Below are positions 1 to 41,827 of a stretch of 41,827 nt of DNA, piece by piece. Below the pieces are notes generated by a model. It saw only the letters and a list, made by a program, of their open reading frames with translations, had not been told where the DNA came from and did not search any database. Location of the stretch: the NCBI GenBank assembly GCA_024181965.1, contig BQXS01012524.1, forward strand, positions 1-41,827. Direction: 5' to 3'. Source of the DNA: Aduncisulcus paluster. Its lineage: Eukaryota. Each line of letters opens with the position of its first letter. Within the stretch, counting starts at the first letter, position 1. Both the position numbers and the translations under genes were made by a program.

Positions 1-643
1 CATCGACATGGGTATTCTATTGTTATTTTGCTTTGTTTGTTGCTCTTTTTGTTGTTTTCCTGTTGGAGCTCTTGTATTCTGTTGTTTGACATTTGTGTAT
101 TCTCCCCAAAACAATTGATTAAACAATATCACTCGTTTTATTATCCATTGCCATTTATTTGATGTATATTTCTATTTTGAATCGATTTGTACCCTTAAAT
201 GCCCATCCTGTGCAGTCTCTCCAAGATTCTGGATGAAATTTGACAATTTCCTGCTGGAGCAAGAAAACTGAGAAGTGAAATAGAATTAAATATAATCACT
301 TTTATTGTGCTAATAATTATCCGTTTCCCTAACCTCGCCAGAATATTCCATCCAATATACTATTCTATACATCTTCTCCAATCTCTACAAACCACACTTC
401 CTCGGCAACATGAATCCCTGCGGCTCTTTGGCAAATACGATAAGCCTCCAGAATATATCCAGAAAGCTCAGATATAATCATATTCTTTCGAGTGATCCAC
501 ACAAGACGATCGCAAGGTTTGACTCTCCTTTCTTCGTGAACATTCAAACCCACAAGACTCAGTGACGCGTTGATCCACGCCCACTCGCCAACAAGGTGTG
601 ATGGAAGGCAGGCAAGTGGGGCCAGATCGTTGAGTTCTTTGAA
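1..643. repeat. Dispersed repeat segment (3' end of the 1086-aa ORF plus its downstream DNA), shared with 17786-18428 and 39937-40579; runs off the left window edge
   Basis: Near-identical sequence from catcgacatggg to gagttctttgaa at all three loci, with only a few substitutions. Confidence 0.97.
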
Positions 644-3595
644 TGCAGACTTTGTACGAGAATAAACATCGCGGATTAGTGGAATCATTTCTGTGTTAGG
701 TGGAAGAGTGAAATGGAATTGTTCATCTTCAGATGCTTTTTCTTCTTCACCTTCTTCTCCCATTTCCTCATCTTTTTCGGGGATGAAGACCTTTTTATCT
801 GCCTTTTCGATCATCTCTTCTTCTTGTTTCATCAACATTGGGTTCACAATGGTCCGATTTATCAGGAATCTCCAAATGAAAGGATCATGAGATATTTTCG
901 TGAAAGATGATGTTTCATAATTCTCGCCTCTCTCTTCCTTCTTCTTCGGACCATTATTTATCTCGAAACAACGGTGGAAGAGAGAAGCAAATGGGAACGC
1001 CCCTTTAATATATAAAACATCTCTTGACTCTTTTGAAACGGTTGGGGTATCACTTTTGCTGTCAGTTGTTGTCATTTCTTTGTCAGCCCTCATTTTCACT
1101 CTAATCGCCTTGAGCTCTTCACGGAACTCAGTCCAAATGACATTCATGCGATTGAAAATAGATGATAAATTTGACTGAAGAAATGATATTCCATCTGAAG
1201 GACCCTCTGTAACCCCGTGGAAAGGGAAACTAGATCGATTGACATAAAAAAGCAGTGAAGCAGGGGAAAAAGAGCATATTTTCGGTCTGTACGTTCTGAT
1301 ACTAGGTGTATCATGTGGTTTGAGACATTGTTCAACATGAAAATATCCATATGCGATACAATGATCAGCATTATTAGGAGATTGATCAAAAGATGACGGA
1401 GAAGCGTATGGCATCTTAGCAATTAGAGAAGAATTATAAGAATAGAGATGGAATCGTACCTGTTCCCACAAAAGTCTCGACATTTGAGTCAAACAACGGG
1501 AAAATAGGGCTTTCCATTCAGCTTCAAGATCATCCGTCCACCAAATACAATTCGATTGAGTGAGGGAGTAATACTCACTCAAAATAAATCGAAGAATTAT
1601 GAGTTGTCGAATTCGGAAGAACAAAGCAACAAAATCTCCAGAAACAATGATATACTGTTTGTCCAAATCTTTGAACAATGTAATAAAATAAGAATAAGAT
1701 TCATTAAATGACTCAATTCCCTTGATAAATTTCTTTGAAGGTGCATCAGATTGAAGAAAATGATATAATGGGAACAAATGAGAAAGTTTGAATGGTATAT
1801 TTTTAGATTTGGGCAAAGATAGATAAAAAGTTTGATAAAATCCAGGCGAAGACAGAGCATATCTATTTGGAGATACAATAACAGAAGATTTTTGAGGGTT
1901 ATTTGTAAAATACGAACTAAATAAATCAACATTATCTTGTTTTGATGGAATATCACTATCAGACAAAGACATTGACAAAAGAGGATATAAATCATTGAAG
2001 GTAGAAATGGTTTTATGAACAATTTTTGGATCACCAAGACACAAATAATCATCATCTTCTTCCTCCTTTTCTTCCTCCTCCTCTTCTTCTTCTTCTTCCT
2101 CCTCCTCTTCTTCTTCTTCCTCTCCTCCTTTCTCTCCTTCTTCCTCTTCCTTTGTGACGAGTAATTGTTGTATGTCTTTTCCCCTCGTCATCTGTGTGAT
2201 CTCAGCCAACACAGCAGCTTGTGAGAGAATGTCTGCACCGTCCATTGCACTGGAGATATCATCATCAAGAGGAACAATAAGATTGTAATCAATTAAAAGC
2301 TTCATATACTCTCGGGATATCGATTCGTTAGATCCGAGAACAGACATATCACGCCGAAATGAAGTCACAAAAGAGGAAACATCTTTGCTACGTGAGTCAA
2401 GGATAAAATTCTCATTTTCATCGATAAAATATCGGCTCGAAACGTTGATACCGGCAATATCTTTCGTCTCTACCTGCATCTTTAACACCCAAGCACACTG
2501 GTCCAAGTACTCTTCCCTATTGAACTCGGAATCGCTAGAGGGCACGTTTTGAAGGAACTGGAGGTCCCAAGTACCCGGAGAATATGGTCGAAGTGAAAGA
2601 CAATGCGCAACGATAGCACCAGTAACACGGACAGGTGTCACGATGGAAGAAGAGGGAGAAGAAGAGGAGGAGGAAGAAGACTTGGTGGTGGGGGGGTCTG
2701 ACTTAACAGGGTAGATTTGGGAAGCATGTTTTTCTGTTGCCGATTCAATGTGTTGAGATCTCGATAGTTTTTCTTCTTCTTCTTCTTTTTCTTCTTCTTC
2801 TTTTTCTTCTTCTTCGTCTTCATCCTTCGGAACCACTCTGAGGAGAAGTATTCGAGAGCCTCGAGATATGACATCACGCCAATATGGCATTGACGATGTT
2901 GTTGGAGCAATAATGGCGGAAGCTGTGACATAAGGAGTTCTTGAGAGAGAAAGAGGGGAGATGGGAGAGATAATCGAGGAGTCGGGGAAGGTCATGGGTG
3001 CATCATGGAGATGGGGTGGGCGGAATGCGGTTTTGAGAAGAATTCCTCTGGTGGAAATTAGTTTGGGGGCATTTTTAAAGGAAAATACAACCTCAGATCC
3101 ACAAACGGATAGGTGGGGTGATACACTTCGTATAGTTGATGAAATAAAAGAAATTAACGATTCTCTCATTTTTTCGTGTAGAATTAGGGATTTCTGATGG
3201 AAATTATTCCCAATTTTAGAAATAAAGGGAGTATGATTGGTATCTGACATGGGAAATATATTGGCAACATCACTATGAATACAATAATGTAAATTTTTGT
3301 TTAATGTTTGCGATATTTTATATATTAAATTTGCATTTTCGGCAATAAATGAAAATAATACTGAACGATCATCACTAAATACTGTTGTTCCACTTATAAC
3401 ACTAGCTAGAGCTAAAATATGTTTAGAAGAAAAGTTTTTAAACATTTTTTGCAACGATGGAATTGATTTAAACTCTTCTAATGGCGATAAAGGAATTCTT
3501 TTGGCAGACTCCCCATATGTTGGAATAAATGAGATGAGAATTGTTTTAAATAAATAAAATCGTTTACAAATGTTATTCCAAGATGATAATAACAT
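365..3595 (-). CDS. Hypothetical protein (~1076 aa) with poly-Glu and poly-Ser tracts
   Basis: Long ORF; the track starts at TTG 3625 and the first in-frame ATG is at 3595. No recognised domain. The last 93 codons lie in the repeat segment. Confidence 0.85.
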   Translation of the reverse strand: MLLSSWNNICKRFYLFKTILISFIPTYGESAKRIPLSPLEEFKSIPSLQKMFKNFSSKHILALASVISGTTVFSDDRSVLFSFIAENANLIYKISQTLNKNLHYCIHSDVANIFPMSDTNHTPFISKIGNNFHQKSLILHEKMRESLISFISSTIRSVSPHLSVCGSEVVFSFKNAPKLISTRGILLKTAFRPPHLHDAPMTFPDSSIISPISPLSLSRTPYVTASAIIAPTTSSMPYWRDVISRGSRILLLRVVPKDEDEEEEKEEEEKEEEEEKLSRSQHIESATEKHASQIYPVKSDPPTTKSSSSSSSSPSSSIVTPVRVTGAIVAHCLSLRPYSPGTWDLQFLQNVPSSDSEFNREEYLDQCAWVLKMQVETKDIAGINVSSRYFIDENENFILDSRSKDVSSFVTSFRRDMSVLGSNESISREYMKLLIDYNLIVPLDDDISSAMDGADILSQAAVLAEITQMTRGKDIQQLLVTKEEEEGEKGGEEEEEEEEEEEEEEEEEEKEEEDDDYLCLGDPKIVHKTISTFNDLYPLLSMSLSDSDIPSKQDNVDLFSSYFTNNPQKSSVIVSPNRYALSSPGFYQTFYLSLPKSKNIPFKLSHLFPLYHFLQSDAPSKKFIKGIESFNESYSYFITLFKDLDKQYIIVSGDFVALFFRIRQLIILRFILSEYYSLTQSNCIWWTDDLEAEWKALFSRCLTQMSRLLWEQVRFHLYSYNSSLIAKMPYASPSSFDQSPNNADHCIAYGYFHVEQCLKPHDTPSIRTYRPKICSFSPASLLFYVNRSSFPFHGVTEGPSDGISFLQSNLSSIFNRMNVIWTEFREELKAIRVKMRADKEMTTTDSKSDTPTVSKESRDVLYIKGAFPFASLFHRCFEINNGPKKKEERGENYETSSFTKISHDPFIWRFLINRTIVNPMLMKQEEEMIEKADKKVFIPEKDEEMGEEGEEEKASEDEQFHFTLPPNTEMIPLIRDVYSRTKSAFKELNDLAPLACLPSHLVGEWAWINASLSLVGLNVHEERRVKPCDRLVWITRKNMIISELSGYILEAYRICQRAAGIHVAEEVWFVEIGEDV

Positions 3596-3669
3596 TGAAA
3601 AATTTCCCAAAGGAATCAAAAACAATAATCATAGTCTGTGGGTGAAACAAATAATTCATATTCAGCATA
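3596..3669. promoter_or_regulatory. Very short head-to-head intergenic region, probable bidirectional promoter
   Basis: Only 74 bp separate the divergent ATGs at 3595 (-) and 3670 (+). Confidence 0.45.
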
Positions 3670-6133: not shown

Positions 6134-9100
6134 ATGAAATTTGAAAAACTTTCCATTGATAATTGTTTATCAAAGGGATTGACCATCGAGGGATTCCTCG
6201 AGGTTCCTCCATTCCAAACTAAGCTTGATATTATGTCCCATAATTTATACAAACCCATTTCTGATTCTATTTCTTTTATGAGTGATTTTTCTGATCCGTA
6301 TAGCATCGGGTCTCCATTTCCTTCCTTTTCTTTTTCAACCGATGGTGGGGATGAATTTGATTCCTTTCAAGAGACCATTGCAAGCAAAATAGCTCGGTCT
6401 ACAGCCTGGTTTATTGATGAATTCCATAGTGAGCGCCTATTTTCAATATTAGTCCAGGCACGTGCAAAAGAGGATTTAAAAGCTTGTCTTGGCTTATTTT
6501 TGATATCAAGATCGATATTCTATCATTGTACTTCTCCATTGCTGTCTTTATATACGTCAAATAGAACATTTGCTCGATATGTTCTCCAATCTTTCGAGTT
6601 CATTTCCCTCTCTTCCTTTCCATCATCTTGGCCAAGATATTACTCAAGAATGCGTAAGATTCGCAGTATAGCTACCGAATTAAGCAAGTATGGTGTATTT
6701 GGTAGGCTTCCAGATTGTCATTATCATTCTTCCAGAAGAATAAGCAAAAGATCCGATTTGTATGGAACTTTCGTACCAAAGTTTGATCAATATTCTTTAT
6801 CAACACCATCCAAATCATACAAGAAATCGAAATATTCCCAAAGTATTGTTAGATCTGATCGTCTCTATCCCTCAAAGTTCTCTGACACCCTCTCCCCAAT
6901 TCCACCCTCAAAAATACCGTATTACTCATCGCTCCAAGGCTGTGCTCCAGGCTGTACGTGCGAGTCTTTCTCCTCCCCTCACCCTTCTCTCTTGCTCCTC
7001 TCTTCCCTTTCGTCTCTCCTCTTCCTCTACCATGAGGTTTTATCAATGAGGAGCGATCTTTGTCTATCCACAAGAGCAGAAGAGGAAATACAAGCTCATG
7101 TGGACAAAGTTCGAAGTGAAAGTTTCAAAGANNNNNNNNNNNNNNNNNNNNTGACACCCTCTCCCCAATTCCACCCTCAAAAATACCGTATTACTCATCG
7201 CTCCAAGGCTGTGCTCCAGGCTGTACGTGCGAGTCTTTCTCCTCCCCTCCCCCTTCTCTCTTGCTCCTCTCTTCCCTTTCGTCTCTCCTCTTCCTCTACC
7301 ATGAGGTTTTATCAATGAGGAGCGATCTTTGTCTATCCACAAGAGCAGAAGAGGAAATACAAGCTCATGTGGACAAAGTTCGAAGTGAAAGTTTCAAAGA
7401 ACTACCTTGGGAACATGTCGGGAAAATCCTATTCAGGTTATGTATCAATTGTTCATCCTTGGCAGAGAAATATAGTACAAACAGAGCGAACTCAACTCAA
7501 AAATATAAAAGTTCACCATCATCTTTTGTTCAGTCAAATGATAATAATTATAATAATGCCATTGATTCTGATTTTGTTGGTTCATCTAAATATAGAACAA
7601 GAAATCCAGTAACATCAAAGTCATTATCTAAATATAGAATGAGTAACTCTGTTTCTATTTCTTCTGTCCCTGATCATCCTGATCATCAATCTCGACCTCA
7701 AGATGCTGTTTCTTCAGCAAACTTTTCTTCCTTGGACCATCAAGCGGCTGGGAGGAAGAGAAGGATGTCTGAATCACACTCAGCCTTTTCACATAAAATC
7801 CACCATGCACCAATTTCTCCATCTTCTTCAGATTCTAGGTACATAATTCATGATTCTGAAGAAGGAGAAGAAGAAGAAGAAGAAGAGAAAGAAAGGGTTG
7901 GTAGGACAATGGATCTTGTACAAGGGAGAAGGACAGATGGGGAAGGAGCGGGAGAAGGAGGAGGAAGTGGTGGTGAAGAGGAAGATGAAGAGGAGGAAGA
8001 TAGCCTTGGAAGGGAAATCGGAGTTAAAAGACAGGCTTTCGATTCCCTTGAAATGATGGCGGATGAGCAGAAAAAAGAATCCATCATCATTGCAGCTGGC
8101 GAGCAACACCAGTCTCCTTCTCTCAGATCCACAGTTTCTCAAGAATCTGCACACCATTCCTCAATTTCAAAGAGGGAAGAATTCTCATCAAACCAACCCA
8201 CAAGTGACGATGGCGTTTGTACTATTAATCGTCCTATTCAGATCCAAACAGTTGAGTCATTATCGTTATTCTCATTTAAAAACTTTCTTAAAACTTTCTC
8301 AAACCCTATTTTTAACCATAACCATCAAGGTGCTACTGTACAATCTTATGATGTTGAGTTACAAGATGGTGCTCGACATGAATTATCTATATTTGGAATG
8401 TCAGCCGGAGATAAATCAATATCAAATCCAATTGTTATGTCTGAACTGAAATCCACAGCCCATGATCTCGATCCCAATGGAATTGAATCTATTTCTGGAA
8501 ACATTTCATCTTCCCAACATCGTATTTTCTCTCCCTCTCCCTCCTCATTATCCTCCGCAAATACCTCCATCGTTAATTCTGAAGCCGAGCGCTATCGTTT
8601 TGAACCGAGAGAAGCAAAAGAACCGGTAGTGTTTGATAGTAGTCGTAGCTTTATAAGTCCTCACAAGGCTTCAATGAGTTCCTTGAAAAGTTGCTCATCG
8701 CTCTCTCTCTTTTCAAATTCAAAGATAAATTATGGATTATCTTCCCTCCTTCCTCTATTAAGAATGCTTATCTATGGCAGCGGCGGAAGGGAAGGAATGG
8801 ATAAGAAAGGATCATCGGAAACCACTGATACCTTTGGAGACAATAAGCTTGGCAGTAGTACGAATAATAATAATACTAATATCTCTACTGATGCTGGAGG
8901 AACCAGTAGAAAAGGGAATATTATCAGAGATCCTCTGCAACCTTCACAGGCCTCTCAACCTTTCGATACCCATTTTACTGATGACAAGGCTGTTAACCTT
9001 CATGTGACTTCGAAGGAACACTTAACTCATCAAGGGGAAGGGAAAGGCTTTAGTTCGTCGAATGTTAGTTCTTTCAGTGGGAATTTTGAGGGATATTTGT

Positions 9101-12100
9101 GCAGAATTCCCGATGAAAAGGAGGAACTTGAAAGAATAGCCAAACGAGAATATTCTATAGATGATGATGGTGATCGTATCAAACAAGCTAATGACCAAAC
9201 CCCCCATCATCATCACGCATCGGCCTCCTCATATTCTCCCATTTCAGTGTCAATGACAATGGTGCCATCATCGTCCCATCACATTTCACAGGCCAACCAA
9301 GGAAGAACAATCATTCAGGGAACGGGAATGACCACTGTTGGAGCAAGTTCATCATCAACAAATAGAACATCTTCTACATCTTCTTCTCATGGTGCTTCTA
9401 AAAATAGATATCTCGATCTAAAACGGGAGGAAGAAGATATGACATTTGAATCGGAATCTGATTTGAGTGAATCCACAATCCAAGTTATTCCATCTGGAGA
9501 GAAACAGTCTTTTTATGTGCGTGATAGAGGAAACGATATGATTGGAATTTCTCAAATGGAATCAATAATGGATATTAATAGAACCACAGATGTTTCTCAC
9601 CCATCAGTGACTGAGAAAGTGCAACTAACTCGTTTGAAGAAAGAACAGAAACGTATCAAGAAAGAANNNNNNNNNNNNNNNNNNNNACTGTTGGAGTAAG
9701 TTCATCATCAACAAATAGAACATCTTCTACATCTTCTTCTCATGGTGCTTCTAAAAATAGATATCTCGATCTAAAACGGGAGGAAGAAGATATGACATTT
9801 GAATCGGAATCTGATTTGAGTGAATCCACAATCCAAGTTATTCCATCTGGAGAGAAACAGTCTTTTTATGTGCGTGATAGAGGAAACGATATGATTGGAA
9901 TTTCTCAAATGGAATCAATAATGGATATTAATAGAACCACAGATGTTTCTCACCCATCAGTGACTGAGAAAGTGCAACTAACTCGTTTGAAGAAAGAACA
10001 GAAACGTATCAAGAAAGAAATAGAGAAAAGGAAAGGAAAAGGTTTAACCCTATCATCAGCCCGTAAAACCCATACTTTCTCTTCAATTGCTTCTCAAACT
10101 TCTAGTTCTTCTTCCTCTCCCTCATCTTCTCAGCAAAAACAACCACCTGATAGCCATAGTCAAGATTACCAGTCCATTCCTCATATTAGATTTATGAGAG
10201 ATAATAATAAGAAACCATCTCCTATCAGCGATATATCTCAAGCCCTCAAGCCTCCTATTATGGATGGTATGATCAGCGATATTCCCACATCAACATCAAT
10301 AGCGCACCATCCAACAATACATTCGAATACAACCTCTCCTTCCTCTTCTTCTCCTTCCTCTTCTTCTCCAAAGATTGTTCTCCCACAATACTCTATATCT
10401 GTGTGTGAGGCATGTATTTTTCTGTGTATATATGGAAAAGGAGACAAGGAACGAGAAAGTGGACGTGAGATGCTTCTTGAGGTTTGGGAGAGGGAAAGAT
10501 CGAGTATCGATGTTGTATGTAAAAATGTGCAGAGAAGAAGTTGGTGGAGATGGATTCAGAAGGAAATAGAGAAGGAAACCTCGATATCTCAATCAAGACA
10601 GCAAAATAACCTTTGTTATGCCAGGTCGTCGGAACCTCATAAACAACGAGAATCAACGAGAAGGGTTGGCCTTAAAAGTTCAGTATCTTCTCATTCCAGT
10701 TATAAAAATAGAAACGGAGAGTTATTATCCCACGCAAAGACGACAACTGTGGGAATTGTCAGTTCACCTGAAGGAATTGATCATTCCTGTGAAAAAACTG
10801 AAGAATCACAAATGAACGAAGTTTCTCAAAAAGGAGGTCTTAGAATTCCTCAAGATGAACCACCCCATGTTCATGAAGAATCAACAAGTTCATCTCAACT
10901 CCCCAATGAGAGTAGAAGGAAACTAAAAGATCAGAGAGATCACCATCCTCCATACTTAGGCCACAATAATAATAGCAATAATAGTAATACTGGTAATCAA
11001 AATATCTTTCCATTTTGGCAAGTTTCAATGCAAGATGAAGTTTCTCAATGGTTATCCAAGAACCTGGGTGAATACAAGAAAGAATGCTCACAATTGGAAA
11101 GTTTGAGAAACACGATTGAGGAAGAAGCTGAAGAAGAAGAGAGGGAACGACAAACATTTGACGATGTTCTGCGAAAAGAAGAGACGACAACGGAAAGCTT
11201 GACAACACAAGGTGCTTCACAGGAGGCAGATAAATTGGGATATCTTTCTCCTCAAGCTCTGATTGGTGAAGATGACCTCGGTGCTTCAAGTCTGGCAATG
11301 GACCCTCAAGAAGGAGTTTCACTCAGTCCTCGGCTCTCTCTGATGTTTGCTGACATTCATACCCAAGATATGACAGGATCTTTACCCTTCGATGGACCAA
11401 ATAATGGAGAGAAGGAGGAAACGACAGATTTAGATATTGAGAAAGAAGAATCTGAGACTGTATCAGGTCCTGGTATTTCCAGTAGTACCAAGCAAACCAG
11501 GAGAAACACTATATATTCCAAACGAAGGGCCCTTCAATCCAATATTATTCAAGATGGTGATCAATTGGACAAATATGTCCAGGATATTGTTTCAAAATGT
11601 GTTCCTCCTCTTCCTTCTTCTTCTTCTCCTCCTCCTCTTCTCCCCCCTTTCTCTCTTCTCTCCTCTTCTTCTCTATCTTCTGCGTTAGCGTCTGGAATAT
11701 TTGGTCTTTGCATATGGTGTATTATAAGGGAGATAGAGAGAGATTCATATGTCAGGAGAATTAACCAATTATGGACAGAATGGCATCACTCACACAAGAA
11801 ACAAGTCATATCCACCATAATTAAACAACATTTGCAGAATAATGGGAATAATCCTCAGTTTCTCAAATATTTTATAAATAGATTGACCAGTTTCAATCAT
11901 GGAAAGCAATCCAATGACCATTTAGATGATTATACTTTATTCAGAGAGAAGCCAAGTCAAGATAATCCCCATCAACATGGTGAAGAAGACTCTGCTTCAT
12001 ACCGTTCACCTCTCAAGCTCTCCCATTTAAGCACGAAACCATCTGGAACAACCCAACAAACAACATCCTCTGCTTGCTCTCCTTCTTGTTCCTATATTCC

Positions 12101-15100
12101 TCCTCTTCCCTCCCCTTCCTCTTCTGCGTTAGCGTCTGGAATATTTGGTCTTTGCATATGGTGTATTATAAGGGAGATAGAGAGAGATTCATATGTCAGG
12201 AGAATTAACCAATTATGGACAGAATGGCATCACTCACACAAGAAACAAGTCATATCCACCATAATTAAACAACATTTGCAGAATAATGGGAATAATCCTC
12301 AGTTTCTCAAATATTTTAGGGAGATAGAGAGAGATTCATATGTCAGGAGAATTAACCAATTATGGACAGAATGGCATCACTCACACAAGAAACAAGTCAT
12401 ATCCACCATAATTAAACAACATTTGCAGAATAATGGGAATAATCCTCAGTTTCTCAAATATTTTATAAATAGATTGACCAGTTTCAATCATGGAAAGCAA
12501 TCCAATGACCATTTAGATGATTATACTTTATTCAGAGAGAAGCCAAGTCAAGATAATCCCCATCAACATGGTGAAGAAGACTCTGCTTCATACCGTTCAC
12601 CTCTCAAGCTCTCCCATTTAAGCACGAAACCATCTGGAACAACCCAACAATGGACAGAATGGCATCACTCACACAAGAAACAAGTCATATCCATTAATGG
12701 GAATAATCCTCAGTTTCTCAAATATTTTATAAATAGATTGACCAGTTTCAATCATGGAAAGCAATCCAATGACCATTTAGATGATTATACTTTATTCAGA
12801 GAGAAGCCAAGTCAAGATAATCCCCATCAACATGGTGAAGAAGACTCTGCTTCATACCGTTCACCTCTCAAGCTCTCCCATTTAAGCACGAAACCATCTG
12901 GAACAACCCAACAAACAACATCCTCTGCTTGCTCTCCTTCTTGTTCCTATATTCCTCCTCTTCCCTCCCCTTCCTTGGATGATGTCAGTAGAGTAGTCTC
13001 GATAATGTTCAGAGATGCCTGTAAAACTATGAAAATGAGTGATAGCGACCTTTCTCTGCTTGAAATACAGCATTCTGAAATCTCAACTGTGTCAAAAGAT
13101 CTCAAGCAGGTCCATCCACCAGCAATATCTCAGATTTTAGCTATTTTATTCGAACATTTACTCGTTATACGGGAATCAATTGAAGAACAATGTCATGGAA
13201 ATGAATCACTTACAAACGAAGGAATAGAAAGAGATCATCAACAAGTATCCGCTTCTACTGATGACATCATGTCGCACTGCCAATCTAAAAATAGATCAAG
13301 CCCGATGCAATCCTCATCTCTAAAAATAGAAAAGGGTTGTGACTCTTCTAAATCCAGTCTTTCTTCCTCTTCTTCTTCTTCTATTTTGAAATCTCTGGAG
13401 TCCCGTCCGATTGTTAATATTCCAGATTCCGTCTGTTCGCTTGCTTGGTGTTCTTTTTGTGTAATTCGAAGTCTTCAGGAAGAAAAAAACAATGAAGACG
13501 TGCTTCGTGCTGCTGAACTGGAAATCCGCAGGAAAGAAGAAGAGAAACTCGCCAAGGAGCATCGAAAACTTCAGAGAGACCGGAGGAGAAGGGAGAAAAC
13601 CATCAGTGGGATTGAGTCAAGTGATTCTGAGACGAAAAAAGAGGAAGAATGCATTCCAGAAGGTATGCTTCTCTCTCCATCTGAGCATGAATCAGATAGC
13701 CAGTCCATTGGATGCATCATTTCAAGTCCTAATCCCTCACCTTCTTCTCTCCACACAGAAAACACACCATCTCTGGCTGCGAATAAGTATATTATTCCAT
13801 CAATTATCCCACCAATATTCAATAGGGGGTTCTTACTCTCTCTTCCAGCATTCTTCCAAATTCCTCATACATCAATATGTCAGGTTTTGCTCTCCATCTG
13901 TATGAATGTGCTTGAAAATGAATTTAAAAGACGTGAAAAAGAATTGAAACAAATTAAAATTTCACTAAAAAATGAATTGAAGAAACAGCGAAGAAAAGAT
14001 AAGGAAATGGCACGAAAACTCCGTCGAAAATCAGGGATAGAAACAATATCTGCAACAACAGACCTACACGGAGATATGAGTACTACCCGACTTACTAGCA
14101 GTTCCCAAAATAGAACAACTGAGAAAGATACTTCTGATTCCAAGCGGCAACAACAACACTCCCCACTCCATCGTTCTCCGACTTCCGAAGAAGCAGGCAT
14201 TGGTGTCGATAGTCGATATATTCAATAGGGGGTTCTTACTCTCTCTTCCAGCATTCTTCCAAATTCCTCATACATCAATATGTCAGGTTTTGCTCTCCAT
14301 CTGTATGAATGTGCTTGAAAATGAATTTAAAAGACGTGAAAAAGAATTGAAACAAATTAAAATTTCACTAAAAAATGAATTGAAGAAACAGCGAAGAAAA
14401 GATAAGGAAATGGCACGAAAACTCCGTCGAAAATCAGGGATAGAAACAATATCTGCAACAACAGACCTACACGGAGATATGAGTACTACCCGACTTACTA
14501 GCAGTTCCCAAAATAGAACAACTGAGAAAGATACTTCTGATTCCAAGCGGCAACAACAACACTCCCCACTCCATCGTTCTCCGACTTCCGAAGAAGCAGG
14601 CATTGGTGTCGATAGTCGATATTCTTCCCCCATTCCATCAATATCCGAGCAGTCAGAAGACAGTGTCAATGCAAATACCCAAGGGATCAGAGGTGGGAAG
14701 CGGCCATTAAATTCGTCAAAAAGAAACCCCCGTGATGAGGAAGACAAAGAGGAGGAAGATGATGGAGAGACGGAAGGAATTCTAATTGATCCGTCTCTTT
14801 TGTTTATTGAACGCAAAAGAAAGGCTGAAATACGACAGTGTGAACGATTATCTGATGTGTTGTTGCATGTTTTACTCCCGATTCTTCATGTGCTGACAGG
14901 AATGTATTGTGATACATCACTTAACGATCAAAATAAGAAGAATCCTCAACCCATCAAAACTTCACTAATTAGTGACCAGCATCTAATGCAAAGACAAGGG
15001 TTTGTTGGAGCCAAAGATGGAAGTCTGTTTCACCAACAACAGAAAGTATCTCCGGTTGTCCCAACCAGATTTCCTCTTCATCTCTCCCTTCTGAAACATG

Positions 15101-15828: not shown

Positions 15829-16205
15829 GTTTTACTCAATTTTTGATGTTGATACATCACACCTTCAAACTGGATCACTTCAAGGATTGTATGGAATTCA
15901 AACTTACTTTTTGGACGATTTCAATGCTATAAAATACACACGAATTGAACACATTCCACGCTCCTTACCTTCGTTCCTGTTTGACCATCAGTCGAGACAA
16001 TCTGTACTACAGATTCTGTAGGGAAGATGTTGAAGAAAAGATGGAATCATGAATTCTTCACGAATTCAAGATCAGAAAAGACAATTGTGCACTTCTTTGA
16101 TCGGATCAATGTTAATAATTATTAAAAATCAAGAAATTTATCCGACACAGTGTCTGGGAGATAGTCAAAGGTATTACGTCCTTTGAAGACAATAACATCA
16201 TTGAA

Positions 16206-17309
16206 TTATTTCCATGGAAGTAGAGATAATCGTTCAGCTGCAATGGTTTCCTCGGGCATAGTAAATACAAGGGAGTGGATGCAGAAATATCGATTATTCT
16301 TCTCTTTCCACGTTCCTTTCCCTTCAATCTCACACAATACAATATTATCCAAATCAATAGGAAGGAAGTGCCATTCAAACCAATGTTTAGGTTTTGTGAA
16401 TTCATACTTCTTGGATGTCTTCTTACCATCACAATCAGTGAAAGTGAAGAGAAGAGAGGGTGAACTGATATCCCTAATCACACAGATATAGGCACCTCCG
16501 ATGGGACTAGGTGATGGGAAAGGGATGGAAAGATGGGATAAGCGAAGACTATCTTCCCCTTTTAACATTTTTTGTGCATCTGAACTCTGATCATACTTCT
16601 CAAATTCCTTACTATACGAATCATTCTTGCACTTAACCATTGAGAATGAAGGATCAACAAGCTTTGGATCATCTCGTGGAATGGGAATAGAATCTCTGCC
16701 TTTAGATTTTCTATCTCCTTCCTTAACAAACTCTGGTTTCACAACTGGAGTTTCAGACCATAGTTTCTCTCTGGCTTCATGAGATTTGATTTCTTCAGGG
16801 TTTTCTTCTCTACTAATGAAAACAAGGGAGATGATTCCAAAATACTCTTTCCTTCTTCCTTTCCCTGTAATCTCACACAAAACAACATCAGGGAGATCAA
16901 CAGGAAGGAAATACCAATGAAAACCATGAAATTCAGGAAATTCGTATTTCTTGGATCTTTTCTCACCCTTTGAAGATGTGAGAGTGAAGATAAGGTGTGA
17001 TGGAGCGAAATTACCCCGATCCCACAGACAGATGAAAGCCCCTTCCATTGAGGAAGATGAAGAGAAAGGAATGGAGATATGGGTAAATTGTCCTAAATTA
17101 AACTCTCCTTTCATCATCTTTTGTGCATAAGAACTCTGATCGTACTTTTTATCACCTTCTTCCAAGGTTCCATCGATTGCCCCGATTGTTGGAAACTCTG
17201 CACTCTTAATGTTGGGGGAATCTCGAGGAATTGGACAACACCACCGATTTCCTTCATGAACAAACTCAGGTTGCATAGTTTGAATAACGGCATCTGTGGA
17301 TGAACTCAT
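16206..17309 (-). CDS. 367-aa protein made of two tandem homologous ~175-aa domains; member of a multigene family
   Basis: Both halves carry PEFV.EG, PIPRD.P, YDQSS.AQKM.KGE, H.SIPF, GA.IC, KKYEF, W.FLP.DL..VLCEI.GKG and SLVF. Paralogue at 38150-39241. No signal peptide or TM segment is evident. Confidence 0.92.
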   Translation of the reverse strand: MSSSTDAVIQTMQPEFVHEGNRWCCPIPRDSPNIKSAEFPTIGAIDGTLEEGDKKYDQSSYAQKMMKGEFNLGQFTHISIPFSSSSSMEGAFICLWDRGNFAPSHLIFTLTSSKGEKRSKKYEFPEFHGFHWYFLPVDLPDVVLCEITGKGRRKEYFGIISLVFISREENPEEIKSHEAREKLWSETPVVKPEFVKEGDRKSKGRDSIPIPRDDPKLVDPSFSMVKCKNDSYSKEFEKYDQSSDAQKMLKGEDSLRLSHLSIPFPSPSPIGGAYICVIRDISSPSLLFTFTDCDGKKTSKKYEFTKPKHWFEWHFLPIDLDNIVLCEIEGKGTWKEKNNRYFCIHSLVFTMPEETIAAERLSLLPWK

Positions 17310-17439
17310 TTGAATAGCGATAGAATTTCTTATCTAAAAAATGTGAACAAACGGAAAAATTGCGAATTTCAAGGAGAACAGTCCGAGAAACAAAGACAAA
17401 ACGAGCAAAACGAACAAAACGAACAAGAAACGACCACAC

Positions 17440-18441
17440 AGCACAATATAGTTAGTATAATTGAATATCAACGATTAATATATATCTTAATATGTATTTA
17501 ACAACAGATATGACATACAGTAAATATATAATGTGTTATTAACGAAAGAAAAGATAACGACCAAACCCACAACCCCCGATTGGCAAACTCAGGAAGTGAT
17601 ATCGTATAATATATGCATAAAAATATATGAACATTTTCTTTGGAACATATATTACATGCCATCCTTGTGAGTCCACTCCTGACAATGACATTCAAAATCC
17701 GTTTCATTATCTCCCTATTTGCCAACACATCGAATTACAAAGTTCCCATTTACAATGATAAAATCATCTTGTAATCCGTGAATGCCATCGACATGGGTAT
17801 TCTATTGTTATTTTGCTTTGTTTGTTGCTTTGTTTGTTGTTTTCCTGTTGGAGCTCTTGTATTCTGTTGTTTGACATTTGTGTATTCTCCCCAAAACAAT
17901 TGATTAAACAATATCACTCGTTTTATTAACCATTGCCATTTATTTGATGTATATTTCTATTTTGAATCGATTTGTACCCTTAAATGCCCATCCTGTGCAG
18001 TCTCTCCAAGATTCTGGATGAAATTTGACAATTTCCTGCTGGAGCAAGAAAGCTGAGAAGTGAAATAGAATTAAATATAATCACTTTTATTGTGCTAATA
18101 ATTATCCGTTTCCCTAACCTCGCCAGAATATTCCATCCAATATACTATTCTATACATCTTCTCCAATCTCTACAAACCACACTTCCTCGGCAACATGAAT
18201 CCCTGCGGCTCTTTGGCAAATACGATAAGCCTCCAGAATATATCCAGAAAGCTCAGATATAATCATATTCTTTCGAGTGATCCACACAAGACGATCGCAA
18301 GGTTTGACTCTCCTTTCTTCGTGAACATTCAAACCCACAAGACTCAGTGACGCGTTGATCCATGCCCACTCGCCAACAAGGTGTGATGGAAGGCAGGCAA
18401 GTGGGGCCAGATCGTCGAGTTCTTTGAAACTAGATCGTGCT
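17440..18441. repeat. 1002-bp segment bounded by 13-bp inverted repeats (agcacaatatagt at 17440-17452, actagatcgtgct at 18429-18441; 11/13 match)
   Basis: The reverse complement of actagatcgtgct is agcacgatctagt. The match is perfect in copy B. Confidence 0.7.
18150..18428 (-). pseudogene. 5'-truncated duplicate of the last 93 codons of the 365-3595 gene
   Basis: FKELDDLAPLACLPSH...EIGEDV*. The ORF-track start at 18449 is a GTG in unrelated junction sequence. Confidence 0.8.
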
Positions 18442-18570
18442 AATACCACCCATCAACTCAATGTATGAGTGGATCAACAAATGCCTTCGCTCATAAAAAT
18501 AAATGAAAGTGAAGTAAAGAGAGGATTTAGAGCTTGAACTAAGATGTTAGTTGCCAGAAATACTGTCATA

Positions 18571-37798: not shown

Positions 37799-38149
37799 TT
37801 GATTCAACAGTGTTAGTATATGGTCGACCACCAAATGTCCTCATCTTCTTCCACATCTTATCCACATGAAACAAACTCTTCTTCTTCCTAACTTAGAAGT
37901 TCTAAGAGACCCATTATCCTTTGCTCTTGAAAAGTAAGTACTTTATGTAAGTCTGATCATCAAGGAGCTGTTTTTTCCATACTTTACTTCATGATTCATA
38001 CCCATTGAATATAAACATTGAAGTTCATTGAACAAGTTGTTCAACAGGTTTAATAACAATATTGTTATAACAATAATAAAATTACAAAGCTCGACACTCT
38101 GGTCACATACGAAGGTATAATATCCTTTGCAGACAATACCATCATTGAA

Positions 38150-39241
38150 TTATTTCCACGGACGTAGAGATAATCGTTCAGCTGCAACGGTTTCCTCGGG
38201 CATAGTAAATACAAGGGAGTATATCTCGAACCTTCGACTATTCTTCTCTTTCCACGTTCCTTTCCCTTCAATCTCACACAATACAACGTTAGCCAAATCA
38301 ATAGGAAGGAAGTGCCATTCAAACCAATGTTTAGGTTTTGTGAATTCATACTTCTTGGATGTCTTCTTACCATCACAATCAGTGAAAGTGAAGAGAAGAG
38401 AGGGAGAACTAAAATCCTTAATCACACAGATATAGGCACCTCCGATGGGACTAGGTGATGGGAAAGGGATGGAAAGATGGGATAACCATACATCACATTC
38501 CCCTTTTAACATTGCTTGTGCTTTTGAACTCTGATCATAATACTCAGTTTCCTTACGAAACGCATCATCCTTGCACTTAACCATTGAGAATGAAGGATCA
38601 ACAAGCTTTGGATCATCACGTGCAATGGGAATAGATTCTTTATCTCCTTCCTTAACAAACTCTGGTTTCACGACTGGAGTTTCAGACCATAGTTTCTCTC
38701 TGGCTTCACGAGATTTGATTTCTTCAGGGGTTTCTTCTCTACTAATGAAAACAAGGGAGATGATTCCAAAATACTCTTTCCTTCTTCCTTTCCCTGTAAT
38801 CTCACACAAAACAACATCAGGGAGATCAACAGGAAGGAAATACCAATGAAAACCATGAAATTCAGGAAATTCGTATTTCTTGGATGTTTTCTCACCCTTT
38901 AAAGATGTGAGAGTGAAGATAAGATGTGATGGAGGTGATTCTAAATAAACATCATATAGACAGATGAAAGCCCCTTTCATTGGGGAAGATGAAGAGAAAG
39001 GAATGGAGATATGGGTAAATTGTCCTAAATTAAACTCTCCTTTCATCATCTTTTGTGCATAAGAACTCTGATCGTACGCATATTCACCTTCTTCCAAGGT
39101 TCCATTAATTGCCGTGATAGTTGGAAGCTCTACATTCTTAACATTGGGGGAATCTCGGGGAATTGGACAACAAGTCCAACCTCCTCCATGAACATACTCA
39201 GGTTGCATGGTTTGAATAATAGCATCTGTGGATGAACTCAT
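38150..39241 (-). CDS. 363-aa two-domain family protein, paralogue of 16206-17309
   Basis: Same repeated motifs; about 52 substitutions and 2 indels versus copy A by hand alignment. Confidence 0.92.
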   Translation of the reverse strand: MSSSTDAIIQTMQPEYVHGGGWTCCPIPRDSPNVKNVELPTITAINGTLEEGEYAYDQSSYAQKMMKGEFNLGQFTHISIPFSSSSPMKGAFICLYDVYLESPPSHLIFTLTSLKGEKTSKKYEFPEFHGFHWYFLPVDLPDVVLCEITGKGRRKEYFGIISLVFISREETPEEIKSREAREKLWSETPVVKPEFVKEGDKESIPIARDDPKLVDPSFSMVKCKDDAFRKETEYYDQSSKAQAMLKGECDVWLSHLSIPFPSPSPIGGAYICVIKDFSSPSLLFTFTDCDGKKTSKKYEFTKPKHWFEWHFLPIDLANVVLCEIEGKGTWKEKNSRRFEIYSLVFTMPEETVAAERLSLRPWK

Positions 39242-39400
39242 TTGAATAGCGATAGAATATCTTATCTAAAAAAATAAAAACAAGCAGAATAATAATAGTA
39301 TTTGTGAACAAACAGAATAATTGCGAATTTCAAGGAGAACAGTCCGAGAAACAAAGACAAAAACAAGCACGAACAAGAAACGACCACACAGCACGATCTA

Positions 39401-39744
39401 GTCAGTGAATTTGGATGACAATGATTAATATATATCTTAATATGTATTTAACAACAGATATGACATATAGTAAATATATAATGTGTTATTAACGAAAGAA
39501 AAGATAACGACCAAACCCACAACCCCCGATTGGCAAACTCAGGTGGATGATGTCAGTAGAGTAGTCTCGATAATGTTCAGANNNNNNNNNNNNNNNNNNN
39601 NGTCAGTGAATTTGGATGACAATGATTAATATATATCTTAATATGTATTTAACAACAGATATGACATATAGTAAATATATAATGTGTTATTAACGAAAGA
39701 AAAGATAACGACCAAACCCACAACCCCCGATTGGCAAACTCAGG
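39401..39744 (+). repeat. Gap-associated duplication (offset 201) with a 38-nt chimeric insert before the N gap 39582-39601
   Basis: 39401-39543 recurs from 39602, and 39544-39581 equals 12976-13013. Confidence 0.88.
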
Positions 39745-40300
39745 AAGTAATATCGTATAATATATGCATAAAAATATATGAACATTTTCTTTGGAACATA
39801 TATTAAATGCCATCCTTGTGAGTCCACTCCTGACAATGACATTCAAAATCCGTTTCATTATCTCCCTATTTGCCAACACATCGAATTACAAAGTTCCCCT
39901 TTACAATGATAAAATCATCTTGTAATCCGTGAATGCCATCGACATGGGTATTCTATTGTTATTTTGCTTTGTTTGTTGCTTTGTTTGTTGTTTTCCTGTT
40001 GGAGCTCTTGTATTCTGTTGTTTGACATTTGTGTATTCTCCCCAAAACAATTGATTAAACAATATCACTCGTTTTATTATCCATTGCCATTTATTTGATG
40101 TATATTTCTATTTTGAATCGATTTGTACCCTTAAATGCCCATCCTGTGCAGTCTCTACAAGATGCTGGATGAAATTTGACAATTTCCTGCTGGAGCAAGA
40201 AAACTGAGAAGTGAAATAGAATTAAATATAATCACTTTTATTGTGCTAATAATTATCCGTTTCCCTAACCTCGCCAGAATATTCCATCCAATATACTATT

Positions 40301-40579
40301 CTATACATCTTCTCCAATCTCTACAAACCACACTTCCTCGGCAACATGAATCCCTGCGGCTCTTTGGCAAATACGATAAGCCTCCAGAATATATCCAGAA
40401 AGCTCAGATATAATCATATTCTTTCGAGTGATCCACACAAGACGATCACAAGGTTTGACTCTCCTTTCTTCGTGAATATTCAAACCCACAAGACTCAGTG
40501 ACGCGTTGATCCACGCCCACTCGCCAACAAGGTGTGATGGAAGGCAGGCAAGTGGGGCCAGATCGTCGAGTTCTTTGAA
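40301..40579 (-). pseudogene. Second 5'-truncated duplicate of the last 93 codons of the 365-3595 gene
   Basis: Same breakpoint as copy A; N>D and V>I changes relative to the parent. Confidence 0.8.
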
Positions 40580-41055
40580 ACTAGATCGTGCTAATACCAC
40601 CCATCAACTCGGCGTATCCAGTTGAAACCAATCTGAATGCAAGAGGATCAAATTGGCATGGAACCACGAAGTTAAACAATCATTTTTACTGTTCTTTGAT
40701 CCAAAATAACATAATAGCTACAATTCGTGTCTGTTCCTTCACTTTCAATTAAGAAAAACATACAACGCAATGTTCCATGGAACTTCCATGCGTAATAAGT
40801 TGAATATTCAATATTTAAAATATTATAATAATATGATTATTGCAATGACACAATATCGAACAATTATGGATATTAAGTAGGATCTGTTGTCAAGCAAACA
40901 TCCAATAATAATACTATTATAATAATAATAATAATAAAAAAAAATAGCTTCAAACTATAACAATAATTTCTGATGAAGAAGAATTAAATTGAATATAATA
41001 TGCTATAATTAGAAGATTTGAGAATAACATAATCTAACCATAATACGATATGGAA

Positions 41056-41827
41056 TCACCAGTCCCCTCCAGAATCGTCCATATCAAAATCAAGATCCAT
41101 TTCATCAATGAGATCCATTGGAACATCATCTTCTTGCTTATCCTTGGGTTTAGCAATTGACGAAGAAATCGGAACATGATCTTCTTCCTCAGAGAGATCT
41201 AAAACGGGATCTTGAGAAACAGGAGGTTGAGAAACAGGAGGTTGTTCCTCTGTTTTAGGAATTGCTTGGATTGGAGAATCTTCTTTCTTCTCTTCATCTT
41301 CATCAAAATCGAGATCCCCAAAGTCGAGTAAATCCTCTTCGTTCACCTCGTCAATAATTTTTGCTTCTTCTCTCTTCTTCTCCTCTTCTGCTTTCCTTTG
41401 TATTTCTTCTTCTCTTCTCAACTCCTCTTCTCTTTTCAACTCTTCTTCCAACTTCCTCTCTTCCTCTTGTCTTCTTATCTCTTCTTTCCTTGCTTGTTCC
41501 TTCCTTCTTATTTCTGACTGTTTCCTCTCTTCTTCTCTTCGTTTCTCTGAAGCAATTCTCTCTTCTTCTTCTCTTCTTCTCTCTTCCGCTTCTCTTCTTC
41601 TCTCTTCTTCTTCTCTTCTCTTCCTCTCCTCTTCTTCCTCTCTCCTCTTTCTTTCCTCTTCTTCTCTCTTTCTCTTCTCCTCTTCGTCTTTCCTTTGTCT
41701 CTCTTCCTCTTCCTTCTTCCTCCTTTCCTCTTCTTTTCTTTCCTCTTCTCTCTTCCTCTCGTCTTCTTCTTTCCTCTTTTGCTCCTCAGATTCCTTCTTT
41801 TTCCTCTCTTCTTCGGGAGTCAATATT
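41056..41827 (-). CDS. 3' part of a gene (5' end outside the window): E/R/K-rich single-alpha-helix region and an acidic tail ending DDSGGDW
   Basis: The frame is open to the window edge and the track start is TTG. EEEERKRR-type periodicity. Confidence 0.8.
   Translation of the reverse strand, partial: ILTPEEERKKKESEEQKRKEEDERKREEERKEEERRKKEEEERQRKDEEEKRKREEEERKRREEEEERKRREEEERRREAEERRREEEERIASEKRREEERKQSEIRRKEQARKEEIRRQEEERKLEEELKREEELRREEEIQRKAEEEKKREEAKIIDEVNEEDLLDFGDLDFDEDEEKKEDSPIQAIPKTEEQPPVSQPPVSQDPVLDLSEEEDHVPISSSIAKPKDKQEDDVPMDLIDEMDLDFDMDDSGGDW

Follow-up and report, generated by a model that had tools for sequence, protein, structure and literature searches.

The DNA analysed here is a complete short-read scaffold of the free-living fornicate Aduncisulcus paluster (contig BQXS01012524.1, assembly GCA_024181965.1), 41,827 nt in length, which we call the window and which has about 37% G+C and long intronless open reading frames (ORFs). 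It contains two members of a large variable gene family, each with an upstream segment bracketed by a pair of 13-nt inverted repeats (hereafter the arms) and holding a fragment of another gene, whose intact form stands at the beginning of the window (locus L1). Self-BLAST revealed that the two genes with their upstream regions, copies A and B, are a direct segmental duplication in the same orientation (Table 1), and the A/B unit is best read as a segmental duplication of young age, situated upstream of a mosaic gene family. The arms had been pointed out in an earlier inspection of the letters, here called the original prediction, which took them for the exact breakpoint of a gene capture and offered three origins for them, namely a Pack-type non-autonomous element with terminal inverted repeats (TIRs), an invertible promoter segment or a templated fold-back insertion.

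Table 1. Features of the window discussed in the text, with their positions and, where assigned, their strand.
Feature	Position	Strand	Details
Source-type locus L1	1-643		364 nt downstream of the 1086-codon ORF 365-3625(-) plus its last 93 codons; starts at the contig end
Copy A, segmental duplication	16168-18459		Contiguous, gap-free; self-BLAST
Copy B, segmental duplication	38112-40610		Variable gene, upstream region, captured segment, junction; self-BLAST
Variable gene A (P0002, 367 aa)	16206-17309	-	100%-identical and diverged blocks relative to B
Variable gene B (P0001, 363 aa)	38150-39241	-	Aduncisulcus paluster family of at least 167 members
Left arm, copy A (AGCACAATATAGT)	17440-17452	+	11/13; 130 nt upstream of the ATG at 17309
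Right arm, copy A	18429-18441	-	13/13
Left arm, copy B (AGCACGATCTAGT)	39390-39402	+	148 nt upstream of the ATG (39241) of the minus-strand variable gene
Right arm, copy B	40580-40592	-	Exact reverse complement of the left arm; begins one base after the homology to 1-643 stops
Flank beyond the right arm common to A and B, 18 nt	B 40593-40610, A 18442-18459	+ (B)	A/B homology stops after it; no other match in the window
L1-like segment in A	17786-18428		99.1% to 1-643
L1-like segment in B	39937-40579		98.9% to 1-643
Gene C-terminal fragment, copy A	18150-18428	-	Same gene fragment as in B
Gene C-terminal fragment, copy B	40301-40579	-	Without upstream ATG
Assembly artefact in B spacer, 201 nt	39544-39744		38-nt chimeric tail + 20 N + 143-nt unmerged overlap
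Separate, more abundant repeat inside the bracketed segment	39745-39871		27-80x single-copy flanks; four contigs diverge just before 39750

In copy B the two arms are exact reverse complements of each other, as predicted, and copy A combines an intact right arm with a left arm that agrees at 11 of 13 positions; in both copies the left arm lies within the predicted 130 to 150 nt upstream of the start codon of the variable gene. We found no inverted identity past the 13 nt, either inward or outward. The homology to L1 was said to stop at the base before the right arm, and it does so in both copies (at 18428 in A and at 40579 in B); the 13-mer comes next, followed by 18 nt common to A and B, after which the copies diverge completely. 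On the other side, 21 nt immediately left of the left arm are identical in A and B and are followed by the whole gene, the A/B homology exceeding the left arm by 1.28 kb and the right one by 18 nt. The identical right arm, the 18 nt and the left flank common to both copies indicate that A and B are descendants of one junction and not two insertions. As far as the window reaches, the right repeat is confined to these descendants, an outcome that the original prediction had named as counting against its transposon and switch models.

The length of the bracketed segment had to be corrected for the assembly. Aduncisulcus paluster was sequenced with 150-nt paired Illumina reads from fragments of about 500 bp and assembled with MaSuRCA into 25,863 contigs with an N50 of 4.6 kb (PMC9933649), and repeats of about 1 kb at 99% identity consequently sit at the limit of resolution. 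Three 20-N gaps occur in the window (7132-7151, 9667-9686 and 39582-39601), and by self-BLAST the sequence preceding each of them recurs, near-perfectly, directly after it (6883-7131 as 7152-7400, 9334-9666 as 9687-10019, and 39401-39543 as 39602-39744). Direct repeats flanking all three gaps mean that the gaps are unmerged contig overlaps, and ORFs that cross them therefore carry false tandem duplications. The third gap interrupts the DNA between the arms of copy B, the spacer. There, the 143 nt at 39602-39744 repeat 39401-39543 at 100%, and the 38 nt before the gap (39544-39581) are without a match in copy A and identical to 12976-13013 of the same scaffold, indicating a chimeric contig end or, alternatively, a real rearrangement variant; the twin of these 38 nt, 26.5 kb away, starts right after a tandem-repeat boundary at 12975. 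As assembled, the B spacer spans 39403-40579 (1177 nt); minus the 201-nt artefact it measures 976 nt, exactly as in A, and the start-to-start distance of the arms becomes 989 nt in both copies. Thus, the arms of the originally described segment of about 1 kb are real, its length in B was inflated, and the observation as a whole is partly confirmed, being genuine and in part distorted by assembly. Tandem duplications with 100% identity are also found within 11653-12975 and 13815-14622 (11727-12059 equals 12318-12650, and 13815-14219 equals 14218-14622), inside a 1478-codon ORF (9792-14228) and with no N gap there; these could be genuine repeats of the protein or products of the assembly.

The direction of copying between the three loci could be read from the gene fragment. 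L1 keeps an intact 1086-codon ORF through the breakpoint, whereas A and B have only its last 93 codons without a start, and for this reason A and B are the derived copies. Their ORF fragments lack an upstream ATG and are closed by an in-frame stop 18 nt outside the arm. Over the 643 nt, 3 differences are specific to L1, 3 to A and 4 to B, with all three copies about 1% apart, and between the spacers of A and B there are 19 differences, of which the first 20 nt hold 8 and the other 956 nt hold 11. So few differences across the 643 nt and the spacer suggest that the duplication is young and that the copies are of common descent. What had been called a gene-capture breakpoint does have the arm edge at the end of homology, and is better termed a segmental duplication with its right breakpoint inside a neighbouring gene. 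When the final 100 residues of the 1086-aa ORF were searched against shorter proteins, one of 61 candidates matched, a 101-aa model on the same contig. In copy A the public annotation places a 101-aa gene model, P0122 (18150-18494, minus strand); as annotated, its first exon takes 16 nt from A's unique flank, with the ATG at 18494, and a 39-nt GT-AG intron (18478-18440) joins it to the captured gene fragment, the acceptor AG being the outermost two bases of the right arm.

Copy number was approached with Logan contigs of two runs (X1, DNA-type; X2, only guessed to be RNA), placed on 38000-41100 at a likeness of at least 90%; summed contig depths are not true copy numbers and give rough ratios only, and X2 depths were not used for statements on expression. 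In X1 the single-copy flanks showed contig depths of 1228 and 1370, and a contig of 214 nt within the captured gene fragment (40234-40447) showed 3725. A depth about 2.7-3x that of the single-copy flanks puts the gene-fragment DNA at about three copies, which are L1, A and B, all in the window. The variable gene reached a summed depth of 10^5-10^6, consistent with hundreds of paralog contigs. Along the spacer the summed depth was about 7x at 39456-39559, 27-80x at 39664-39871, about 10x at 39872-39975 and 3-4.5x over most of 39976-40599, and from this unevenness we conclude that the bracketed segment is pieced together from repeats that differ in abundance and is not a uniform element. The motif TTAAATGCC(C)ATCCT(T)GTG is present twice in the spacer (39803-39820 and 40131-40148); the more abundant sub-segment listed in Table 1, or this motif, could represent a 3'-end signal or a dispersed repeat of small size.

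Depth also bears on the left limit of L1. The homology described as covering 1-643 is exact at its right limit, and at its left it ends because base 1 is the end of the contig and not a breakpoint. At the position in B equivalent to base 1, the summed depth climbs leftward from about 4x to about 10-80x, and given this rise base 1 is a natural stopping point for a short-read assembler. One X2 contig (39867-40163) has L1-type letters at 39981 and 39983 and reaches 70 nt left of the base-1 equivalent. We had considered it as proof that the L1 homology continues and reduced it to a hint, since a de Bruijn contig can cross between copies via identical stretches.

The inverted repeat by itself is not beyond chance, as about 2.3 perfect 13-mer pairs are expected per window (mean 2.27, maximum 6, in 100 first-order Markov simulations). 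The window has 13 such pairs no more than 1500 nt apart, 11 of which fall within purine/pyrimidine low-complexity runs; the two in complex sequence are the arm pair and a pair at 14841-14853 and 16224-16236 (TGAACGATTATCT and AGATAATCGTTCA), with one arm in the 3' end of gene A, which we take as chance background. Allowing up to 2 mismatches, the 13-mer of the arms matched the window 5 times against 0.50 expected, a number reached in none of 100 shuffles. We also defined a priori a 31-nt junction query, the stretch from the end of the homology to 1-643 to the end of the A/B homology, and searched it against the window by blastn-short. Its sole notable non-self match was the 13-mer at 39402-39390 (E = 0.011), the remaining matches being 9-mers or shorter with E of at least 2.7. 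Given the position of the arm at the breakpoint, the inverted identity is probably meaningful. A 9-nt direct match overlapping the end of the right arm (GTGCTAATA, 40243-40251 against 40588-40596) was tried as a second template and set aside as being at chance level (E = 2.7, with many equal matches). Against metagenome contigs the 31-nt junction had 0 matches, a result expected for a cultured protist and uninformative.

The identity between A and B changes sharply at the gene, from 98.5% in the spacer to 88% overall in the adjoining gene (self-BLAST). A separate recent insertion was considered as the cause and rejected, since the gene itself has 100%-identical blocks of up to 250 nt. Compared over 50 nt at a time, the two genes alternate between 100% blocks of 100-250 nt (16350-16449 and 16850-16949) and blocks of 66-88%. 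The paralog P0008, at columns where A and B are discordant, sides with B in 22 of 24 cases within columns 1-110 and with A in 16 of 18 within columns 111-240. This pattern suggests either segmental exchange between paralogs or, in part, assembly chimerism; patchy exchange accounts for the contrast of 88% and 98.5%, which thus needs no separate insertion. What looks like one more patch of this kind includes the arm, as the 33 nt at 17440-17472 and 39390-39422 contain 10 A/B differences, 2 in the left arm and 8 in the following 20 nt, flanked by 21 identical nt on one side (left) and by sequence of about 99% identity on the other. This patch, with the degenerate left arm of A, may have been converted over a short tract by another paralog.

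We read the arms, with a probability of roughly 0.55, as the signature of one DNA-repair junction in a young segmental duplication and not as the ends of a mobile or invertible unit. The L1 stretch, consisting of intergenic DNA downstream of the 1086-codon gene and its last 93 codons, would have been copied beside a member of a large recombining family, the copying perhaps starting by strand invasion in the upstream region common to the family. It would have stopped inside the neighbouring gene, and the end would have been joined without homology to unrelated DNA, the 13 nt at the joint most likely originating as filler that was made during end joining on the left-arm template 976 nt back, through snap-back or a switch of template. 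The composite of gene, upstream region, captured segment, 13-mer and 18-nt flank would then have been duplicated once more to give A and B, and later patchy exchange with other paralogs would have made parts of the gene diverge, and likewise the 33-nt patch with A's left arm. Of this account, the data show the anatomy, the single origin, the low copy number and the assembly artefact, and the repair pathway and the direction of templating are our reading of them. What speaks for templated filler at the joint is that the 13-mer sits exactly between the end of the L1-homologous sequence and unrelated DNA, and that a template identical in inverted form at 13 of 13 positions is found 976 nt away, the only notable partner of the junction in the window.

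One-sided homologous copying, as in synthesis-dependent strand annealing (SDSA) or break-induced replication (BIR), and ended by end joining, has been described for multigene families. The A/B unit resembles such duplications in that its left side merges seamlessly into family-wide homology and its right side is abrupt inside another gene, in the mosaic nature of the paralogs and in the low copy number of the captured flank; it differs in that here the invasion step is one that we infer and the donor is hidden left of base 1. Templated filler at junctions is reported from alternative end joining (PMC4912351, PMC5728401). Measured against templated insertion by polymerase theta or synthesis-dependent microhomology-mediated end joining (SD-MMEJ), our junction is alike in having a short insert exactly at the repair junction that is an exact, here inverted, copy of nearby sequence, and in being a single event with no target-site duplication; it is unlike in having no priming microhomology and a template 976 nt off instead of tens of bases.

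Several points weigh against a repair junction with filler. The left arm of A agrees at only 11 of 13 positions, so the model requires either a later change in A or that B is the older copy. Microhomology at the edges of the 13-mer amounts to zero bases at either, the junction reading GAA/ACTAG...GTGCT/AAT and the inverted template context CTG/ACTAG...GTGCT/GTG (slashes mark the edges), and the distance of 976 nt is long. Inserts templated by polymerase theta or SD-MMEJ usually show 1-5 nt of priming homology and a template within about 100 nt. With three copies 99% identical in a short-read assembly, the phasing of single-nucleotide polymorphisms is uncertain, and part of the gene mosaics may be assembly chimeras. 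L1 might also carry a left arm and a third family gene further left than base 1, where the contig ends. Finally, the pair may have arisen by chance, the 31 nt being no more than the flank that the first insertion site had from the start, and the inverted identity without mechanistic meaning. The 2.3 perfect pairs within 1.5 kb expected for a window of such size and composition, the second complex-sequence pair at 14841/16224, the missing microhomology and the degenerate arm of A all speak for this possibility, which we regard as improbable given that the arm edge meets the homology breakpoint to the base and that the E value of the junction query, already low over the whole window, would be lower still if limited to the 2.3-kb unit.

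The right arm is most likely either inverted filler of 13 nt, made at a single repair junction, or one half of a palindrome that was there beforehand. For the latter, the recipient would have had a 26-nt perfect palindrome (the two arms abutting) upstream of the family gene and would have been broken at its centre; repair would have copied 976 nt from L1, primed from the left half, and blunt-joined them to the right half, so that the halves now bracket the captured DNA. Palindrome-induced double-strand breaks can capture filler DNA, and the arms would here be the halves of a palindrome that an insertion had separated, leaving neither a target-site duplication nor microhomology. Such a course accounts for the exact bracketing, suits the missing microhomology at the right joint better than filler does and fits the same single-origin and low-copy data; in addition, the sub-contig beginning at 39602 starts no more than 2 nt from the inner edge of the left arm. 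We nevertheless hold it to be unlikely, because it requires a pre-existing 26-nt palindrome, and no intact one was observed here, and an L1 homology ending exactly at 39403, out of view as the contig end matches 39937, and because the bracketed segment, with its very unequal depths, is not obviously one captured piece. Filler and palindrome differ in a way that leads to opposite predictions for the sequence left of base 1 and for other family loci. A more far-reaching version, for which we see only a slender chance, has the 13-mers as halves of a 26-nt palindromic hotspot upstream of a variable-gene subfamily that repeatedly breaks and captures ectopic DNA, or occasionally inverts the captured segment. 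If true, this mosaic family of at least 167 members would have an intrinsic means of remodelling its upstream regions.

Mobility and inversion explain the data far less well than a single repair junction. Pack-MULE and Pack-TIR elements are non-autonomous DNA transposons that carry gene fragments, and inverted 13-mers enclosing a segment with a fragment of a host gene, together with the higher A/B identity of the spacer than of the adjoining gene, might suggest that the arms are the terminal repeats of such an element, moved before two family genes. This is very improbable. The A/B homology outruns both arms, so they cannot be the ends of the duplicated unit, and there are no independent insertions; the gene-fragment part is present in about three copies, all in the window, one of them the intact source, which lacks arms; A has a degenerate left arm despite a 99% identical interior; and the contrast in identity is accounted for by patchy paralog exchange. 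As originally noted, both copies share one orientation and there is no target-site duplication, the flanks (...GACCACAC up to the left arm and AATACCAC... from the right arm on) being without an abutting direct repeat. The 5-nt ACCAC that is found near both arms could be counted in favour of an element, and we rejected it as a target-site duplication for its offset from the arms of 2 nt on the left and 3 nt on the right. A Pfam scan of 17 translated stretches of the window detected only a group-1 glycosyltransferase, a DEAD/RecQ-type helicase and an RRM, and no transposase or recombinase domain.

The same scan argues against an invertible switch, in which the 976-nt segment would be turned round by recombination at the arms, switching the downstream variable gene. 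Bacterial fimS/hin-type switches and the Flp/FRT system of the yeast 2-micron plasmid are of this kind, and the likeness lies in short inverted repeats that flank a segment upstream of a variable gene, here by 130-148 nt. We give this reading next to no credence, since no recombinase domain is found in the 17 stretches scanned, one orientation is seen in both copies, the arms of A are mismatched and those of B perfect, and the content of the segment is a pseudogene fragment plus the 3' flank of another gene, with no sign of promoter function. Moreover, a 195-nt X2 contig bridges the left arm in reference orientation, and the 15 contig joints listed, of 54, include none that changes strand, a view in which a rare inverted form may be missed; the listed joints and loose ends (the latter 12 of 322) are dominated by paralog noise within the gene, where empty sites or inverted forms could go unseen. 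The original interpretation is therefore partly supported, with two of its three options failing and the templated fold-back insertion surviving in modified form, the only one left standing, lacking its usual microhomology and matched equally well by capture at a palindrome centre.

The variable genes belong to a family that is large in this organism. A protein search with P0001 found at least 167 proteins at E of 0.001 or below among 1738 candidates, and every named one among the 120 matches listed is a hypothetical protein of Aduncisulcus paluster; some family members are named by their sources as fusions to NudC, thioredoxin or kinase domains. Pfam has no match for the variable protein, whose sequence shows an internal two-fold repeat. 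The fold predicted from a 45-sequence family alignment consists of two tandem beta-sandwich domains (mean predicted local distance difference test score, pLDDT, 91.5; predicted template modelling score, pTM, 0.85). Among solved structures, the tandem CBM32 domains of Clostridium perfringens ZmpB match it best (E = 4e-9) and discoidin/F5-8 type C domains come next, with whole-chain template modelling scores (TM-scores) of only about 0.29, and weak leads in the ESM Atlas (scores 0.89-0.91) point in the same direction.

In conclusion, the locus has a cautionary value, since 20-N gaps in a fragmented short-read assembly conceal unmerged overlaps and a chimeric contig end, and such artefacts inflate repeat spacings and can mimic structure. 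The junction would be an ordinary duplication scar, a small piece of the history of this genome. The gene family in which it lies may be worth study apart from the 13-mers, being large, exchanging segments among its members, encoding tandem beta-sandwich proteins and having upstream regions patched together from repeats.

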